In this document: piece by piece, positions 10 to 13,934 of the stretch
Position numbering within the stretch: the stretch's first letter is position 1
How the letters are laid out: every line of letters begins with the position of its first letter
DNA from: a virus
Virus genome (UHGV): UHGV-0048975
DNA: 20,483 bases
Strand: one strand, 5' to 3'
Program-made: the position numbers and the translations under genes
Notes under the pieces: generated by a model
Databases searched by the model: none
Seen by the model: only the letters and a program-made list of their open reading frames with translations
What the model was told of the DNA's origin: nothing

Positions 10-29
10 TTGTGTACATTTGTACACAA
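10..29. promoter_or_regulatory. Inverted repeat TTGTGTACA-TT-TGTACACAA upstream of the TetR-family gene; putative autoregulatory operator
   Basis: Perfect 9-bp inverted-repeat arms with 2-bp spacer, read directly; sits about 20 bp upstream of the ATG at 50. TetR regulators commonly autoregulate via palindromic operators. Confidence 0.4.
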
Positions 30-49
30 TTGCAGAGAGAGGAAATGAC

Positions 50-586
50 ATGCGTCGCGCTAACGATCCGCAACGGCGAGAAAAAATTATCCAGGCCACG
101 CTGGAGGCGGTGAAACTTTACGGAATACATGCTGTTACGCACCGCAAAATTGCTACCCTTGCCGGGGTACCGTTGGGATCGATGACCTACTATTTTTCAG
201 GAATTGATGAGTTGTTACTGGAGGCGTTCAGCAGTTTTACTGAGATCATGTCCCGGCAATATCAGGCATTTTTTAGCGATGTTAGTGATGCTCCGGGCGC
301 ATGCCAGGCTATCACCGATATGATCTACAGCTCACAGGTTGCAACGCCGGATAACATGGAGCTGATGTACCAGCTCTACGCGCTGGCTAGCCGAAAACCG
401 CTATTAAAAACGGTAATGCAAAACTGGATGCAGCGCAGTCAGCAAACGCTCGAACAATGGTTTGAACCCGGAACCGCCCGCGCGCTTGATGCGTTTATTG
501 AGGGGATGACGCTGCATTTTGTCACCGACCGTAAGCCGCTATCGCGCGAGGAGATTTTGAGGATGGTTGAGAGGGTTGCAGGGTAG
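50..586 (+). CDS. rcdA: TetR-family transcriptional regulator (host gene, RcdA/YbjK-like)
   Basis: N-terminal TetR-type HTH ([23 protein letters not shown]). ATG at 50 preceded by GAGG; the track ORF from 20 uses a TTG and is probably an over-extension. Symbol is from memory of E. coli YbjK/RcdA, unverified. Confidence 0.8.
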
Positions 587-677: not shown

Positions 678-1754
678 TCAGTGGTGGTTATTACGGGGTA
701 ATGCCAACCGCTGCCGCCACTTTGTCGCCACTTTGTCGCCACTTGGCAGCGTTGCCAGAGGATTGAAACGGAGCGCCGTTTCCAGATGATCCGGTGCCAG
801 ATGTGCGTAACGCATAGTCATTTTTATATCGTGGTGTCCGAGAATTTTTTGTAAGGCCAGAATGTTTCCACCCGACATCATGAAGTGCGCCGCAAACGTA
901 TGGCGCAGAACGTGTGTGAGTTGACCGCGAGGGAGCACGATAGACGTTTTTTCCATCACGGATAAAAATTGAAAATAGCAGTCTGTGAAGAAATTGAACC
1001 CATCAAGCGCCATGATCTCTTCGTAAAGCTCTTTACTGATAGGGATGCTTCTGTTTTTCTTCCCCTTCGTTCTGACAAAGGTAATTCGGTATTTGGTCAC
1101 CTGTGAGCGGGTAAGATTTACGGCTTCACGCCAGCGTGCGCCTGTGCTTAAGCATATCTTAACTACCAGTGCCAGAATTGGGTCCTGACGTTTGCAATCA
1201 GCCAGCAATTCAACAATCTGCTCATGGGTAAGCCATGCCATCTCTTTTTCTGCGATGGTGAATTTTCGCATGTTCTCCAGTGGGTTCGGATACGACCATT
1301 CGCCCAGACGGGATAGTTCGCTAAAAACACTACTTAGATAGCTTTGCTCCAGGTTAATGGTGACCGGGCTTGCTCCTTTCTTCCATTTCTCGCTGAAGTA
1401 GATCTCGCCTGTCAGGCGTTTATCTCGATAGTGGGCAAACATTTTAGAGGTGAGATCGGTTGCAAGAGGATTGCCCAGAGCGTCAACCATCAACAGCAAT
1501 TTGTCATAGACATGCTGCCCAGCTGTCAGAGATTTACCATGTAGTTTGAACCATAGCTCAACCACGTCTTTCAGTGTTCGACGATCCACTGATTCACCCA
1601 GCCAGGGCTTTGCTTCGGTTTCTTCCATCGTGTGGCGCTCAAAAGCCAGTGCTTCGCCTTTGGTGACGAATTGTTTACGCACACGACGCCCACTTCGTCC
1701 GGCGGGGTAACATTCGCAAAGCCATTTCCCAGTGGTGAGTTTTCGTACTGCCAT
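678..1754 (-). CDS. int: Tyrosine integrase (P2/186 Int family)
   Basis: Begins MAVRKLTTGKWLCECYPAGRSGRRVRKQFVTKGEA, the typical P2-family Int N-terminus; C-terminal HxxR...RYAHL catalytic region. Start placed at the ATG at 1754; the 410-aa track ORF has an implausible N-terminal extension. Confidence 0.9.
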   Translation of the reverse strand: MAVRKLTTGKWLCECYPAGRSGRRVRKQFVTKGEALAFERHTMEETEAKPWLGESVDRRTLKDVVELWFKLHGKSLTAGQHVYDKLLLMVDALGNPLATDLTSKMFAHYRDKRLTGEIYFSEKWKKGASPVTINLEQSYLSSVFSELSRLGEWSYPNPLENMRKFTIAEKEMAWLTHEQIVELLADCKRQDPILALVVKICLSTGARWREAVNLTRSQVTKYRITFVRTKGKKNRSIPISKELYEEIMALDGFNFFTDCYFQFLSVMEKTSIVLPRGQLTHVLRHTFAAHFMMSGGNILALQKILGHHDIKMTMRYAHLAPDHLETALRFNPLATLPSGDKVATKWRQRLALPRNNHH

Positions 1755-1942
1755 AAAAAATGCCCTCCAGTAGAGAGCATTTTCACTGTATGTATAACCA
1801 GTGTCAATGTATGAAATCCTACGACCATACATCTCACTGAAGCCATAATTAAGTTGGCTATTCTTTTTGCTATGTGAGCATGTAACTTTTGCGGTTAACC
1901 TGCGGCTCATTTTTATTTTAGACGCAGATATAAAAGCAAAAG

Positions 1943-2134
1943 TTATCGTGAGTTTTTAGTACAGATTTTTTTGGATTTACTAATAGTTCCATCATTGCAA
2001 ACGAATTTGCCATCTGAGGTACAGTGAGAAACACCTCCCTTTTTCCCTGAGCAGGGATAATTTCTAGCATAGGTAGTTAGTGGGTTTAATAACAAAGAAC
2101 ATGACAAAACCACAAAAAATACCTTACCAAGCAT
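1943..2134 (-). CDS. Small secreted or lipoprotein-like protein (63 aa, signal peptide plus 4 Cys), between repressor and int
   Basis: Hydrophobic N-terminus [23 protein letters not shown], then a Cys-containing mature part; strong RBS GGGAGG 5 nt upstream; starts 15 bp after the repressor stop, so probably co-transcribed in the lysogenic operon. Confidence 0.5.
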
Positions 2135-2149
2135 AGTTTCCTCCCGGTA

Positions 2150-2719
2150 CTATTTAACATACTTGACTGTTAAACTTATAATTTTACCAATTATTTCAAT
2201 GTCTTCTATCTTGCATTCGAAGGCTCTGTTTCCACCCTCGACGAAGATTCTTCCACCGGGTAAACGAGTAATGTCACGGATCGTTATTTCGCCATCAATA
2301 CTTATTACCCATTTACCATCACGTATATCATCAAATTCTTTATCACAAATAAATTCAGAATTGTTATCTGTGATGACAAAAGGTTTTTTAAACGTAGAGG
2401 GTAGAAATCCCTTATCAAAAATATAAAAACCGTCTTTCTGCAATGCTCCATCAGACAATAAATATTTTTCTACTTCTATAGTATTTGTATTTGCTGATGC
2501 TTGCTTTGAACCATGCCCTGTTGTTAGCCAATTAAGCGAGGTGCCCGTTTCAAGGGCGCACTGGATTACCCAATCTGCTGGAAAAATATCACGCATATAG
2601 CGCGTTGCCATGGTGCTCTTAGAAACACCTAAATGATCACATAGAGCCTGACGGGTACCGAACCCATATGCTTCAACTAAACGTTCTATGGCTTTCTTAC
2701 CGCCGCTATTGAAATCCAC
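2150..2719 (-). CDS. cI: Phage 186 CI-like immunity repressor (HTH N-terminal domain)
   Basis: Segment RLVEAYGFGTRQALCDHLGVSKSTMATRYMRD...CALETGTSLNWLTTGHG resembles the 186 CI N-terminal domain (from memory). Start taken as GTG at 2719 with GGAGGA just upstream; the track's longer ORF (to 2806) would cover the putative pR promoter. Confidence 0.7.
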   Translation of the reverse strand: MDFNSGGKKAIERLVEAYGFGTRQALCDHLGVSKSTMATRYMRDIFPADWVIQCALETGTSLNWLTTGHGSKQASANTNTIEVEKYLLSDGALQKDGFYIFDKGFLPSTFKKPFVITDNNSEFICDKEFDDIRDGKWVISIDGEITIRDITRLPGGRIFVEGGNRAFECKIEDIEIIGKIISLTVKYVK

Positions 2720-2864: not shown

Positions 2865-3068
2865 ATGACACCTAACATTTCAATTACTCTGAATACACCA
2901 CATGTCACAATCGAACGTTATAGCGAACTGACTGGCCTTTCTATTGATACGATTAACGACATGTTGGCTGATGGCCGACTACCTCGTCATCGTCTTCGTA
3001 AAGACAAAAAACGTGAAAAGGTAATGATTAACCTGGCTGCTCTGACTGTTGATGCTTTGTCTGCTTAA
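2865..3068 (+). CDS. Cox/Apl-like small DNA-binding protein (excision and switch regulator), putative
   Basis: First gene of the rightward operon, divergent from the repressor; 67 aa, basic C-terminus ([12 protein letters not shown]) and HTH-like segment. Assignment is mainly by position. Confidence 0.55.
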
Positions 3069-3132
3069 TAGACGTCTATTTTCGCAATAAGACGCTGAGT
3101 TCGATTTTGCGATAAGTTCGGAGTTGAAAACC

Positions 3133-8877: not shown

Positions 8878-9561
8878 CTATGATTGAAGGGTGACTTTTT
8901 TTAACGTATCAAAAACGATTTTCGTAAACTCATTCTCATTTCTAACATCAATATAAGCAAGGCCGCTATTGGTGATCTTGAGCTTACCGGAATATTCTAA
9001 TGAATTAACAGAGCAAACAAGCCTGTCAATTCTTATTTTTTTACCCTCTAATTCTTCTTTATAATACTTCCTAAGATCATTGCTGCCAATTATTTGCATT
9101 TTAGCTGTGGCGTAATCAGAAACTCTAACCCTTGAAATATCAAGTTGTGTTAAATTGATATTTACACTTGAAGATATTTCATTAAGCCAGTCTATAGGGT
9201 TTATGTCAATTTCTTCCAAACTAACACCTAAGCCAAGATTTTTTACCAAAGCCTGCGAAAAAGGCTTTAAAGTTCTGGGTGGGTTAGTAATCTGCATTAC
9301 AGGAAGAGAGTCTAAAGCCACGCTAAAATTTGTGGTGCGATATTCGATTCTTTCAACGGTAGTTTCGCTTCCGTCAAAGCTTAATATTTTATCATGATAA
9401 ACAATACGCTCGACAAAGCGACCATTTGCAAAATCATGGCGTATTTTATCAAAAATGAACCCTTTCCCTTTATCCTCTGTAAAAGAATCAAGAGAAAGAC
9501 GTCTAACGGCTGTTTCAAACTCAAGCCGTATGTTTAACTTAAGCCATTTAACCTTTTTCAT
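8878..9561 (-). CDS. Hypothetical protein, third gene of three-gene cargo operon (227 aa)
   Basis: ATG at 9561 lies inside the 3' end of the upstream gene (14-nt overlap); AT-rich; no recognisable motif. Confidence 0.75.
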   Translation of the reverse strand: MKKVKWLKLNIRLEFETAVRRLSLDSFTEDKGKGFIFDKIRHDFANGRFVERIVYHDKILSFDGSETTVERIEYRTTNFSVALDSLPVMQITNPPRTLKPFSQALVKNLGLGVSLEEIDINPIDWLNEISSSVNINLTQLDISRVRVSDYATAKMQIIGSNDLRKYYKEELEGKKIRIDRLVCSVNSLEYSGKLKITNSGLAYIDVRNENEFTKIVFDTLKKVTLQS

Positions 9562-10627
9562 CTTCGTTCACCTCTGATCCTATTATTATATTATAGGCAT
9601 TTTCAGCGGCGGACTCAATTAATTCACTAATATGTTTTTTCTCTTGTGCCGTTGCCGCGCGAATGGTTACATTGAAACCGTCTTCTTTTTGATTGTTTAT
9701 ACCTTTAATTTGATAGGCAAAGTCACAGCATTTTTCTGAGTCTTTGAAAAATGCTTCGACGTTGATTCTGTCTCCAATTCCACTTGTCGGCTTTGAAGAC
9801 CATGCAATACGCCCGATATAATAACCTTTCTCATGTAGTTGAGAAAATATAGCTGAACTATTTACCCCTTCACCATTAAGGACGGCTTTCTTAACAAATC
9901 CGGTATCAATAGTTTCTTCCTTGTCTTCATCCTCACTAGCATCAGTACTGCGATTTAATTCGACTTTTGTTACGTCATCAGTCTCATAACCGCGTAGACC
10001 ATTCATTAATTCCTGAAAAAACTGACTTCGCAATGTAGGATCAGTTATTGCTAGTAATGATATTTCGAAGCGCTCGATAGGTTCGGACTTGATTTTAGAT
10101 AGCTCGTTTTGCAAGCTCTCAATAACTTTTTTTGCCTCGGGGTTTTGAGGCATACGTACTTCAACTTTGTCAGCTCCAGGGCGAAGTTCTATTATAACAT
10201 TCCGCTTGTCGATCTGACGTAATGCAGTTTTAGACAGGTCTATTTCTTCATATTTGTATTCTACTGTAAGCGAGCCATCTTTTTTAGCTACAATATTCAG
10301 GCTTTGACCTTTACTAGGGGAGCATGTTTTTTTTAGTGCTTCAGCAGCACTTTTTAATTCGGCCTGATTTGTTGAGGTTTGGAAGCTCACACTAGTAGTG
10401 CTTTCCCTTGGGTCATATGTTTTGACCAGTTTTTTTATGTGTTCTAATTCATTAAATCCGTGAGGAAGTTTGGATATTTCCTCGATTAGTATTTCCTTGT
10501 CGAGTTCTGGTGATAAAAACACACCTCGATTCAACAATAATTCATGCAACTTTGCAGCGGTTATCCTTTTATGATGTAATGCATCATAAATATTTTTATC
10601 AGTTGCGAAATATAGTTTTTTAGCCAT
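9548..10627 (-). CDS. Hypothetical protein, second gene of three-gene cargo operon (359 aa)
   Basis: Start overlaps the upstream stop (TAATG); acidic internal stretch; no Walker A or other known motif seen. Confidence 0.8.
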   Translation of the reverse strand: MAKKLYFATDKNIYDALHHKRITAAKLHELLLNRGVFLSPELDKEILIEEISKLPHGFNELEHIKKLVKTYDPRESTTSVSFQTSTNQAELKSAAEALKKTCSPSKGQSLNIVAKKDGSLTVEYKYEEIDLSKTALRQIDKRNVIIELRPGADKVEVRMPQNPEAKKVIESLQNELSKIKSEPIERFEISLLAITDPTLRSQFFQELMNGLRGYETDDVTKVELNRSTDASEDEDKEETIDTGFVKKAVLNGEGVNSSAIFSQLHEKGYYIGRIAWSSKPTSGIGDRINVEAFFKDSEKCCDFAYQIKGINNQKEDGFNVTIRAATAQEKKHISELIESAAENAYNIIIGSEVNEDEKG

Positions 10628-11628
10628 TATCGTTGCTCCATGCCGATTTGTTCAAGATTATATTCAACAACAATTTTGTCTGTCTTGTCGAAGTCAATTT
10701 TAAGAAAAAGTCTTTCATCCTCGCCTAAGAGCCAGTCTGTGCTGTATTTCTTTTTCGCTCTTTCAAAATGATGAATGGCATTTTCATTTGGGTGAATGTG
10801 ACAATGGCGTAATACGATTGGTTTACCTTCGGTTAATATCTGATAAGTTGATAACATATCAAAGAAGTAAACGAATTCGTCTACTGAATCCCCCGGTTGA
10901 TTGTAATAAACAACATATCCCTCAGGGTTTTTATCCCTGAGCCAACTGAAAGCCTCATGCTTTATTATAATGTATGGTGATGTTAATAATTCAATTGTTG
11001 CAGGTGTTGTCTGATTAATAGGGTGCTTTATTCTTGTTAGGGAAAGATCTGGATAATAATATGTGAACTTATCAGGTTGAGGAAGTTTGCCTGAACCAAT
11101 TAACTTAGTTATGTCAGAAGATATGTTTATCAAATCTGATATTTTATAAGGGTCAAGCAAATGTAGTTTGATGTTTGGAGGGCAATTTATAGATGAGTGA
11201 TCTAATTTTTTTGTAATATTCTCATAGAAGTCTTTATCATATAAATTATCATGGTTATATAAGAATAATAACCCTCTTACGTTATAACCTAAAGAATCAT
11301 CATGAACATATTTCAATCGCCATTCTTCACTGACATTTGCACACTCGGTAGCTAAAGCAAGCGATGTTAAAGCTCCCTCGACTATTTTTTTCCCAATAGT
11401 ACCTTCTGCATAGCTTTTGAGGTCTGTGTTGAGATAGACCATTTCCTCCTCATATGGATCTATGTAGAAAAATACAACATCGCTTGGATGTGTTTTCTTG
11501 GAATGAGCCTCTTGGCAACAATCCCAATTCATGTCCGCTCTAGCGGCACGATCCCATTTGAACACTGAGAAAATATCATCAGAAATCTTACCCGCGACTC
11601 GTTGTATAGCCGAAGTCTCTCCACCCAT
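10627..11628 (-). CDS. Hypothetical protein, first gene of three-gene cargo operon (333 aa); weak PD-(D/E)xK-like signature
   Basis: GGAG RBS 9 nt upstream of the ATG; possible nuclease-like pattern FFYIDP...MVYLNTDLK (tentative); AT-rich. Confidence 0.8.
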   Translation of the reverse strand: MGGETSAIQRVAGKISDDIFSVFKWDRAARADMNWDCCQEAHSKKTHPSDVVFFYIDPYEEEMVYLNTDLKSYAEGTIGKKIVEGALTSLALATECANVSEEWRLKYVHDDSLGYNVRGLLFLYNHDNLYDKDFYENITKKLDHSSINCPPNIKLHLLDPYKISDLINISSDITKLIGSGKLPQPDKFTYYYPDLSLTRIKHPINQTTPATIELLTSPYIIIKHEAFSWLRDKNPEGYVVYYNQPGDSVDEFVYFFDMLSTYQILTEGKPIVLRHCHIHPNENAIHHFERAKKKYSTDWLLGEDERLFLKIDFDKTDKIVVEYNLEQIGMEQR

Positions 11629-12188: not shown

Positions 12189-13046
12189 ATGTTTAGTGAT
12201 AAGCAAAAGCAACAAATAGGTAATAATTCGTATGCAATTCAAGCTGGAAATAATGTAAATGTTTCAGGGATGTCGTTTTCCGAGGTTAGAGAACTATTCA
12301 ACATTCTCTTCGAAAATCAGTTTCCAAAATTGAAAGATGTTGCTTATGCTGCAGCTCAAGAGAATGCAAAAGATTTTGAAGAGCGTGTCGTTTCGGATTT
12401 AACAAAAAACGTTGATAGATTGATTATTGATAAATTTTGCGATCCGGACGTTCAGGCTACATTGACTGAGGCATTAAAGTCATCAGCCAGGAAGGGAAAG
12501 AAAGCTAATATGGATGTGCTTTCTCAGTTGTTAGTTGAACGAGTCTCCAATAACAATGACGATTTTAGAGATATAGTTTTAACGGAGGCAGTTACCGTCG
12601 TTCCCAAGTTAACACAGCAACAAATATCACTTATAACGATAGTTTTTCTTCTCAAGAATGTTGAGATCAAAGACCCTGTTAATGGTGTTCGATTGGATTT
12701 GTTGGAGCACAATTTTAGAAACTTTGAATCAATGTATACTAATGGGTTTAATTTGTCTCAAGCCCAGATATATCACATTCAATATGCAGGGGCTTGTTCA
12801 TGGAATACTTTTTTAGGGATGGATGTTGAAGACTATTTTATGAGTAAATATCCGACTGATATAAAAGATAAGAGTGCATATATTTCAAATCTTAAGTTAG
12901 TTGCCCCTCATGTGTCTGCATTTTTAGAAAAATTTTCAAAGAGCAACTATCAAGGAATTGAATTAACAAGTGTAGGGCAAGCAATTGCTCTGGCTGTTTT
13001 TTCAAGATACGTAGGAAGATTGGATTATAATATTTGGTTAAAGTAG
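12189..13046 (+). CDS. Hypothetical cargo protein (285 aa), partner of the small membrane protein
   Basis: AAGGAGGA RBS immediately after the upstream stop; AT-rich; N-terminus KQQIGNNSYAIQAGNNVNV parallels SQSVGDNSTAVQARGDIKI in the upstream protein. Confidence 0.8.
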   Translation: MFSDKQKQQIGNNSYAIQAGNNVNVSGMSFSEVRELFNILFENQFPKLKDVAYAAAQENAKDFEERVVSDLTKNVDRLIIDKFCDPDVQATLTEALKSSARKGKKANMDVLSQLLVERVSNNNDDFRDIVLTEAVTVVPKLTQQQISLITIVFLLKNVEIKDPVNGVRLDLLEHNFRNFESMYTNGFNLSQAQIYHIQYAGACSWNTFLGMDVEDYFMSKYPTDIKDKSAYISNLKLVAPHVSAFLEKFSKSNYQGIELTSVGQAIALAVFSRYVGRLDYNIWLK

Positions 13047-13075
13047 GGCATTATTTGCCCTACTTTATTATAATT
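13043..13075. terminator. Bidirectional terminator hairpin GTAGGGCA-TTATT-TGCCCTAC followed by a T-rich run
   Basis: 8-bp stem overlapping the stop codon of the 285-aa gene, then TTTATTATAATT; lies between convergent genes. Confidence 0.6.
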
Positions 13076-13630
13076 CATATGGTTGGAAAGAAATTATTTC
13101 ATCACTCAACCATTCATTAATTTCTTTAATTCGCTTTTGCAGCGGTATCAATTCGTTACGGACAAACACCTTACTCGCCTTTTCCACATCCCCAAATCCC
13201 CCAACATTACTCGGCATAATCCCCATCATCTGCGGCGGAACGCGGTGTGCAGCCATCATGTCGTCTCGGCTCACGTTCTTAATGTTCAGAAACTCATCCT
13301 TTGCCGCTACCTCTGACAGCGGGATTATCTGAATCCCGTCCTTTTTGCCGTTGGGTGAATACATAAACAGGTTGCGGAAGTTGCCCGGTCCTTTAGCGCT
13401 TTTCATGGCCTGGCGGATGTTGTTCACGTCCTCCTGGTTCTGCGCGGCGTCGGTCATATACATGATGAACCCTGCATGACTGCCATTGATGTAGTATTTA
13501 CGCCGGAACAGCGTAGCGGACTCGTTCAGCAAGGCGGACGGAATGGCGGACAGATATTCCGGCAGGCCGTAAATTTCCTGGTTCAGGTCCGGCTCCATCA
13601 GGTGAAAGATACTGCCTTTAGTGAACTCGT
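13068..13630 (-). pseudogene. Portal protein gene remnant (3' half only; P2 gpQ-like)
   Basis: C-terminal portal-like sequence (...GIMPSNVGGFGDVEKASKVFVRNELIPLQKRIKEINEWL...); only ~180-190 codons where P2-type portals are about 340; the 5' boundary is approximate. Confidence 0.65.
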
Positions 13631-13639
13631 AGGGCTGCG

Positions 13640-13934
13640 TGGTTACACCCTGAACGTGGTGATTGAGGATTTCAGCGGCGACCAGAATCTGCTGATGGCC
13701 CCGGTTTTGCTGTGGCTGCGGGATAACCAGCCCGATGCCATCAATAACCCGGCGTTACGGGAAAAACTATTTACCTTTGAGGTGGATATTCTGCGCAACG
13801 ATGTCTGTGATATCAGCCTTAACCTGCAACTGACGGAACGTGTGCTGGTCAGCACTGACGGCAGTGTGTCGAGCGTTGAAGCGGTAGCAGAACCCGATGA
13901 ACCTGAAGAAATGTGGACGGTGAAACGTGGCTGA
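13640..13934 (+). pseudogene. Tail completion protein R gene remnant (3' part; P2 gpR-like)
   Basis: YTLNVVIEDFSGDQNLLMAPVLLWLRDNQPD...LNLQLTERVLVS resembles P2 gpR; the upstream part of the track ORF is antisense to the portal remnant, so the N-terminus is missing. Boundary approximate. Confidence 0.6.

Follow-up and report, generated by a model that had tools for sequence, protein, structure and literature searches.

The virus genome sequence UHGV-0048975, a stretch of 20,483 nucleotides (nt) that we call the window, carries a 186-like prophage integrated adjoining the host gene rcdA (20..586, + strand). Between the prophage repressor gene cI and the integrase gene int, and in the same orientation as both, lies an open reading frame (ORF) of 63 codons plus a TAA stop codon (coding sequence 1943..2134, − strand; stop codon 1943-1945). 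Our analysis shows that this ORF is a genuine gene of the YdcA family, already catalogued, conserved and under selection, which resides in the lysogenic operon and there in an exchangeable cargo slot. The identity of the gene, the export of its product and its membership in the YdcA family can jointly be regarded as nearly certain. For its role in the lysogen we tentatively propose superinfection exclusion at the cell envelope. An earlier sequence-only reading of the window had described a 63-amino-acid (aa) ORF at this position, 15 bp after the repressor stop codon and upstream of int, and both its coordinates and its description of the gene proved correct. It had missed, however, that the ORF belongs to a named and widespread family with a chromosomal paralogue in Escherichia coli K-12, that annotations of the gene already existed, and that int is preceded by a promoter-like site of its own.

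The ORF encodes a member of the YdcA family

The homology search that had been proposed in the sequence-only reading led to the YdcA family (NF007463, PHROG 6000, PF27300). With the NCBIfam model NF007463 (PRK10040.1-2) the protein scored 115.8 bits against a cutoff of 93 and covered profile positions 1-58 of 58, and PHROG 6000 was likewise matched in full length (positions 1-56 of 56) with an E value of 1.9e-34. In RefSeq, the protein of the identical locus is annotated as WP_000900883.1, 'YdcA family protein', and the Pfam family PF27300 (YdcA) is precomputed on all close relatives and on the representative of the 90% cluster. The Pfam library that we scanned ourselves held no YdcA model, and the sole match obtained with it (0.075) is meaningless. 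Hundreds of genomes already carry an annotation of this exact protein, so that the window does not contribute a new gene. The cassette carrying the gene (window 1833-2149) was present in 590-648 of 5426 complete E. coli genomes (~11%), including that of the BL21 derivative C41(DE3). In UniRef, this protein goes under the name 'Conjugal transfer protein', for which no basis was found; the copy that we examined on plasmid p3ABAYE does not lie in a transfer region.

The protein is predicted to be exported and its mature part is under purifying selection

The N terminus of the protein contains K4 and a hydrophobic core formed by residues 5-16 (9-residue Kyte-Doolittle means of up to 2.7), followed by the sequence TYA|RN. 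A hydrophobic N terminus precedes the domain in 151 of 154 family members, and throughout the family alanine is dominant at positions −6 and −4 from the proline of the PCS motif, which corresponds to an A-x-A site for signal peptidase I (SPase I). A23 was invariant in the 25 family sequences compared. Based on this hydrophobicity and on the family-wide conservation of the A-x-A site, we infer a Sec signal peptide comprising residues 1-23 (2066..2134, − strand), with a predicted SPase I cut after A23. The hydrophobic signal sequence that had been claimed for the ORF thus has the features expected of a Sec/SPase I substrate. The predicted mature peptide, residues 24-63 (1946..2065, − strand), consists of 40 aa (4.3 kDa) and has an isoelectric point of 9.7 and a net charge of about +7; the net charge of the domain is positive in nearly all family members.

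Five cysteine residues are present in the protein. C12 lies within the signal peptide and is not conserved, whereas C28, C38, C46, and C58, the four cysteines that had been pointed out in the mature part, were invariant in the 25 sequences, as were P27, S29, K32, G33, G34, F44, D48, G49, S52, S54, and K55. The core pattern PCSGxKGG-x4-C-x7-C-xDG-xxSxSK-x2-C, which includes the four cysteines, was also found in 171 further domains. The presence of C12 raises the alternative of a lipoprotein anchored through this residue, with VLSC serving as the lipobox. The residues L-S-C are indeed found at positions 10-12, and one relative is labelled 'Lipoprotein' by UniRef, but this relative has no cysteine in its signal peptide, C12 is absent from most relatives and is preceded by only 11 residues, and the conserved A-x-A site lies 11 residues beyond it. 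Because C12 is not conserved, we rejected this reading, the probability of which is practically negligible. A cytoplasmic zinc knuckle was ruled out as well, because nearly all family members have a signal peptide and because the probable homologue Dis2 (see below) shows disulfides in the density obtained by cryo-electron microscopy. Export, cleavage after A23, disulfide bonding, and cotranscription with cI can be considered well-supported predictions.

When the gene was compared with the BL21-type copy, the mature part showed 9 synonymous and 0 nonsynonymous changes. In comparisons with the copies of a second E. coli lineage, of Enterobacter, and of Yersinia, the nonsynonymous divergence (dN) of the mature part was 0.03-0.05 with the synonymous divergence (dS) saturated, whereas the dN of the signal-peptide part was 0.36-0.70. 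Judged from these alignments, the mature part is under very strong purifying selection, whereas the signal peptide is free to drift. For our view that the ORF is a real coding gene, this pattern of substitutions is decisive. The mature core is conserved from the Enterobacterales to Moraxella, Neisseria, Comamonas, and Rhizobium.

The gene is located in the lysogenic operon between cI and int

The repressor gene cI, which is of the 186 type (PF07022, 3e-31; PF16452, 5e-29), extends over 2150..2719 on the − strand; position 2719 is the start given in RefSeq, and the mechanically derived ORF reaches 2806. The gap between the TAG stop codon of cI (2152-2150) and the ATG of the ydcA-like gene (2134-2132) is exactly 15 nt. 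As read directly from the sequence, a Shine-Dalgarno motif GGGAGG (2140..2145, − strand) is placed ahead of this ATG with a 5-nt spacer, AAACT, in agreement with the strong ribosome binding site noted in the earlier description. Downstream, the start of int at position 1754 follows 188 nt after the end of the ydcA-like ORF. The int gene (678..1754, − strand; PF24624 and PF00589, phrog_1) encodes a tyrosine integrase and is the distal gene of the lysogenic operon. To the right of cI, the prophage contains an apl/cox-like gene, cII (PF06892), fil, and the replication genes.

A scan of the − strand of the cI-int interval revealed no terminator-like sites, and in Haemophilus phage HP2 the ATG of the homologous ORF overlaps the stop codon of cI (ATGA). 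Both observations agree with the position in a cI-int operon that had been claimed for the gene. The lysogenic promoter pL was not picked up by a consensus promoter scan of the region; we assign transcription of the ydcA-like gene to pL because of the synteny with the records of phages 186, HP2, and K139, in which pL is annotated. On the basis of this synteny, the lysogen would make the YdcA-like protein together with the repressor, and we consider expression of the protein in the lysogen to be likely.

Just upstream of int, the − strand carries a sigma-70 promoter-like site with the sequence TTGACA-17-GAAAAT (1779..1807). The site is kept as TTGACA-17-(G/T)AAAAT, with TAAAAT elsewhere, in prophages with quite different cargo between cI and int, and this conservation across differing cargo suggests that int is transcribed from a promoter of its own as well as by read-through from pL. 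The best sigma-70 match of the region is a different one, TTAACA-17-TATAAT (11/12; 2154..2182, + strand), which reads antisense into the 3′ end of cI at the cI/ydcA junction and could be a chance match in AT-rich DNA. An overlapping ORF of 50 aa (1918..2070, − strand) was set aside because it had no support, and an Rfam scan of the whole window matched no RNA family.

An ORF that is small and AT-rich and located between two regulated genes could be suspected to have no protein function, serving as a spacer or as a translational-coupling device for int, or representing a decaying remnant. We consider this extremely unlikely. Purifying selection is specific to the mature peptide, so that the substitution pattern already contradicts this explanation, and conservation is very high across the family. 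Furthermore, the distance from ydcA to int ranges from 2 to 188 nt, extra genes intervene in some prophages (a KAP NTPase gene in some of those of E. coli), and int is preceded by the promoter-like site described above.

The gene occupies an exchangeable cargo slot

At the rcdA att site, the sister prophages have cI, int, and ~64 nt upstream of int, with the promoter-like site, in common and differ in the cargo located between them. Toward int, homology to the prophages with other cargo ends at ~1818; toward cI, it ends at the stop codon of that gene. By alignment and base composition, the exchangeable cassette was delimited to 1819..2149 (− strand); it comprises the ydcA-like gene and ~125 nt of 3′ flank and has a G+C content of 34-35%, compared to 48-51% in the surroundings. 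In the same interval, the sister prophages of strains ET565 and SW071619 carry PD-Lambda-1 (DUF4041) and PDC-M11, respectively, and in a third lineage PDC-S20 adjoins ydcA within the slot. An antiviral hotspot between cI and int was previously reported for K139-like P2-like phages of Vibrio (PMC9122126), and in Vibrio phage K139 the slot is occupied by glo, whose product is annotated as periplasmic and involved in exclusion. These neighbours bear out the assumption in the sequence-only reading that the position is typical of morons, and the YdcA knot thus has its slot in common with validated anti-phage genes. The statement that phages 186 and P2 have no gene at this position was also right, as the records of both contain no gene between the repressor gene and int. 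In a scan of PADLOC-DB 2.0, the ydcA-like protein itself matched no defence family at E ≤ 0.001, whereas neighbouring cargo genes of its relatives did. By analogy of position with K139 Glo, the ydcA-like gene may be viewed as a moron with a secreted product in the immunity operon of the P2 family.

YdcA genes recur behind prophage repressor genes in many genera

A profile search of 1.84 billion representatives yielded 464 clusters, and a scan that covered each GTDB species with one genome yielded 229 relatives in Gamma-, Beta-, and Alphaproteobacteria. A second protein search with a 100-sequence profile retrieved 1101 relatives, which were single-domain proteins in all 120 cases among the matches listed. 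The gene order cI-ydcA-int was conserved in E. coli, Enterobacter hormaechei, Yersinia enterocolitica, and Haemophilus phages. The Haemophilus phages HP2 and S2 contain an unannotated ydcA-like ORF of 60 codons (2920..3102, + strand, of locus L002 in the case of HP2), with a start codon overlapping the cI stop codon in both phages; in HP2 it is followed by orf1(S), a gene that also starts with a signal-peptide-like sequence. YdcA genes were found behind a P2-like prophage repressor gene in at least 10 genera, and P2-like marker genes were present within 5 kb in 20 of the best 80 species-level loci. In Proteus, ydcA is located beside ogr and D. In the loci inspected from Comamonas, Oceanisphaera, Kingella, Hydrogenophaga, and Aquabacterium, ydcA has the orientation of a repressor gene from a different family (HTH_3, alone or with Peptidase_S24) and lies downstream of it, and another gene for an exported protein often intervenes. 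In the Moraxella and Acinetobacter phages examined, ydcA belongs to the late region, with head genes on one side of it and tail genes on the other. An almost invariant cysteine knot of 35 residues, predicted to be exported, is a recurrent passenger of P2-like repressor operons in Enterobacterales, Pasteurellaceae, Neisseriaceae, Moraxellaceae, and Comamonadaceae. In the literature that we searched, neither the breadth of this association nor the nuclease fusions and the probable kinship to Dis2 reported in the following were found described.

The YdcA domain is probably related to Legionella Dis2 and is found with nucleases and secretion systems

The best PDB match obtained with Foldseek was Dis2 (7muc_AN), with a probability of 0.89 and 37% identity. 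Profile searches against PDB also retrieved Dis2, with E values of 4.6e-5 and 0.005, and a Dis2-like protein itself scored as PF27300. A comparison with hhalign gave an E value of 3.3e-5. The motif C(C)SKMGG..C....vCN(D/N)G..S is found in every lobe of Dis2. The Dis2 lobes (PDB 7MUC/7MUD, chain AN) are probably homologous to the YdcA (PF27300) domain. In the published structures, Dis2 is built of lobes that are pinned by disulfides, lie near the outer membrane, and make contacts with the lipoproteins DotK, DotC, and DotD (PMC8486379, PMC12716638), and Dis2 was described there as Legionella-specific and without structural relatives.

In the long family members (n = 39), the domain follows the signal peptide, and it is fused to Endonuclease_NS in three cases and to SNase, a PLD-type nuclease, and the type VI secretion system (T6SS) protein VasL in one case each. 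An Endonuclease_NS domain directly after YdcA was found in Crenothrix. In an element of Legionella sp. (locus L027, 4001..4751), a YdcA gene of 93 codons overlaps the start of a SNase-family gene by 26 nt, and this gene pair represents a split version of the YdcA-SNase fusion; the element also carries a gene for a DUF927 protein.

These arrangements raise the question of whether the cationic knot binds nucleic acid. In this case, the free copy would trap or mask DNA in the periplasm and lower the uptake of transforming or injected DNA, and the nuclease fusions would use the knot as a substrate-binding domain. The domain is fused to or adjoins three unrelated secreted nuclease folds, carries a net charge of +7 with conserved lysines (K32, K55), and is encoded by phages of the naturally transformable hosts Haemophilus, Moraxella, and Acinetobacter; in addition, mobile elements are known to block transformation by means of periplasmic nucleases (reviewed in PMC12378983). 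However, Dis2 sits on outer-membrane lipoproteins rather than on DNA, the associations with T6SS are unrelated to DNA, nuclease fusions account for only a small part of the family, and natural transformation is not known as a trait of E. coli, Yersinia, or Enterobacter. A periplasmic nucleic-acid binder is regarded as distinctly improbable. A broader version of the idea holds that the YdcA knot is a hitherto unrecognised extracytoplasmic mini-domain for binding DNA or another invariant polyanion, which serves secreted nucleases as a substrate or anchor module and which in its free form, produced from the immunity operon of P2-like prophages across Proteobacteria, acts as an enzyme-free periplasmic trap that blocks foreign DNA, be it from superinfecting phages or from transformation. 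This is unlikely; if true, it would represent a new mechanistic class of prophage-encoded exclusion, provide a first function for E. coli YdcA, and give Legionella Dis2 a family context.

A subfamily of YdcA proteins of 130-148 aa is characterized by the C-terminal motif PTCAPLYMAxKPGFTHLPIC. Its genes are located directly after a T6SS PAAR gene plus a gene for a 474-aa protein in three contexts (loci L024-L026, 4001..4447) and after tssF-G-J-E on a Citrobacter IncF plasmid (locus L113, 3926..4327). Together with the VasL fusion and the contractile tails of P2-like phages, this could indicate a link to contractile injection machines, in which the domain attaches to a site close to the outer membrane that T6SS or P2-type tails use, and acts as an immunity-like or assembly factor. 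The T6SS-linked subfamily, however, differs from the window protein by an additional C-terminal domain, adjacency to T6SS genes is no more than a correlation, and the homologues of Moraxella and Acinetobacter phages are encoded between head and tail genes. We consider this explanation highly unlikely.

A possible role in superinfection exclusion

As the YdcA module occurs, given its probable kinship to Dis2, on the Dot/Icm machine just under the outer membrane, beside T6SS genes, and fused to secreted nucleases, it might be a binding module for a conserved ligand on the envelope side, such as an outer-membrane-proximal protein or lipid, or a polyanion, e.g., DNA. In the mechanism that we favour, superinfection exclusion, the precursor would be exported by Sec and cut after A23 to give a 40-residue, strongly cationic (+7) mini-protein. 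Its four invariant cysteines would pair to give two periplasmic disulfides, as the analogy to the probable homologue Dis2 suggests, and the small domain would dock on a highly conserved envelope target that is probably polyanionic or outer-membrane-proximal. For the free domain supplied by the prophage, lysogenic conversion acting at the envelope would be the most likely role, and the domain could specifically interfere with envelope crossing or DNA entry of an incoming phage. An exclusion role at the envelope is a possibility that we put forward with reserve, and the same reserve applies to the entire chain of steps that ends in it.

What speaks most strongly against exclusion is that the domain is nearly invariant and that chromosomal paralogues with stress phenotypes exist; both favour a generic role in envelope fitness. 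According to this alternative, the prophage copy does the job of chromosomal YdcA as a host-fitness factor in envelope or acid stress, which benefits the lysogen without blocking phages. K-12 YdcA was described in one study as a predicted periplasmic protein of 57 aa with unknown function. An E. coli ydcA deletion was reported to be sensitive to 3-hydroxypropionate, and ydcA to be acid-induced through YdcI (PMC7642389). In agreement with a common role, the mature domains of K-12 YdcA and of the prophage copies are very similar, the extreme conservation fits an invariant cellular target, and the intact gene is retained in decayed prophages, namely, in BL21/C41 and in the head-less prophage of the window. 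On the other hand, a host-fitness factor leaves unexplained the strong tie to P2-like repressor operons (20 of the best 80 species-level loci) and the slot shared with defence genes, and the K-12 phenotype stems from a single study that offers no mechanism. We regard this alternative as rather unlikely.

If the YdcA-like protein is an exclusion factor, or an envelope factor of another kind, the orphan gene ydcA of E. coli would gain a function, the conserved unannotated ORF of the classical Haemophilus phages HP2 and S2 would be explained, and the supposedly Legionella-specific Dis2 would be placed in a broad family. As the peptide is small enough for synthesis, the hypotheses are cheap to test.

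Other features of the prophage

A group of defence-related genes lies at window 8878..11628 (− strand) and 12189..13046 (+ strand). Three co-oriented genes in it matched PADLOC Hp3, Hp2, and Hp1 in full length, with E values of 2e-157, 3e-248, and 1e-239. We take this trio for '3HP', an anti-phage system from the gpA-portal hotspot known in P2-like phages. The gene next to the trio belongs to the LPO_1073/Vpar_1526 family. Of the portal gene, only a fragment encoding 176 C-terminal aa is present (13068..13598, − strand), and it abuts an N-terminally truncated gpR (13476..13934, + strand). In an intact relative, the genes for terminase, scaffold, capsid, head completion, holin, lysozyme, and LysB/C are located between portal and gpR. 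Judged by its gene content, the prophage looks defective and head-less.

At the 3′ end of int (~722-743), an 11-bp tandem duplication (CTTTGTCGCCA) was observed in comparison with an otherwise identical prophage. It shifts the reading frame of the Int C terminus (358 aa versus 350 aa), and the duplicated motif resembles the consensus YAYCGCCAYTY of the 186 Int arm sites.

Comparison with known systems

E. coli K-12 YdcA (b1419; family NF007462/NF007463) has the same architecture as the window protein, a signal peptide followed by a domain of ~35 residues with the pattern PCSGxKGG..C..FxCxDGxxSxSKKxC and four cysteines. The K-12 gene is chromosomal and adjoins rydC and cybB, whereas the window copy is prophage cargo in a cI-int operon, and the identity of the two genes at the DNA level is only ~78% over 87 nt.

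Dis2 (Lpg0823), a component of Legionella's type IV secretion system (T4SS) Dot/Icm, is exported, disulfide-bonded, and periplasmic, properties that are predicted for the window protein. It consists, however, of two tandem lobes with ten cysteines (five disulfides), whereas the window protein has one lobe with four cysteines and is encoded amid prophage genes only, with no T4SS nearby.

PD-Lambda-1/DUF4041, PDC-M11, and PDC-S20 are large proteins of the cytoplasm or the membrane that contain nuclease or NTPase domains, in contrast to the predicted 40-aa periplasmic peptide of the window, which has no PADLOC match. Their genes occupy the same cI-int interval in sister prophages at the rcdA att site, and the ydcA-like gene can co-occur with PDC-S20. 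Glo of phage K139 is, with 137 aa, larger than the window protein and shows no sequence similarity to it; homology between the two was rejected, as hhalign gave a probability of 2% and aligned the signal peptide only. In the slot of its gene (cI...glo-int), in orientation, in the possession of a signal peptide, and in its origin from a P2-related phage, Glo nevertheless corresponds to the ydcA-like gene and its predicted product.
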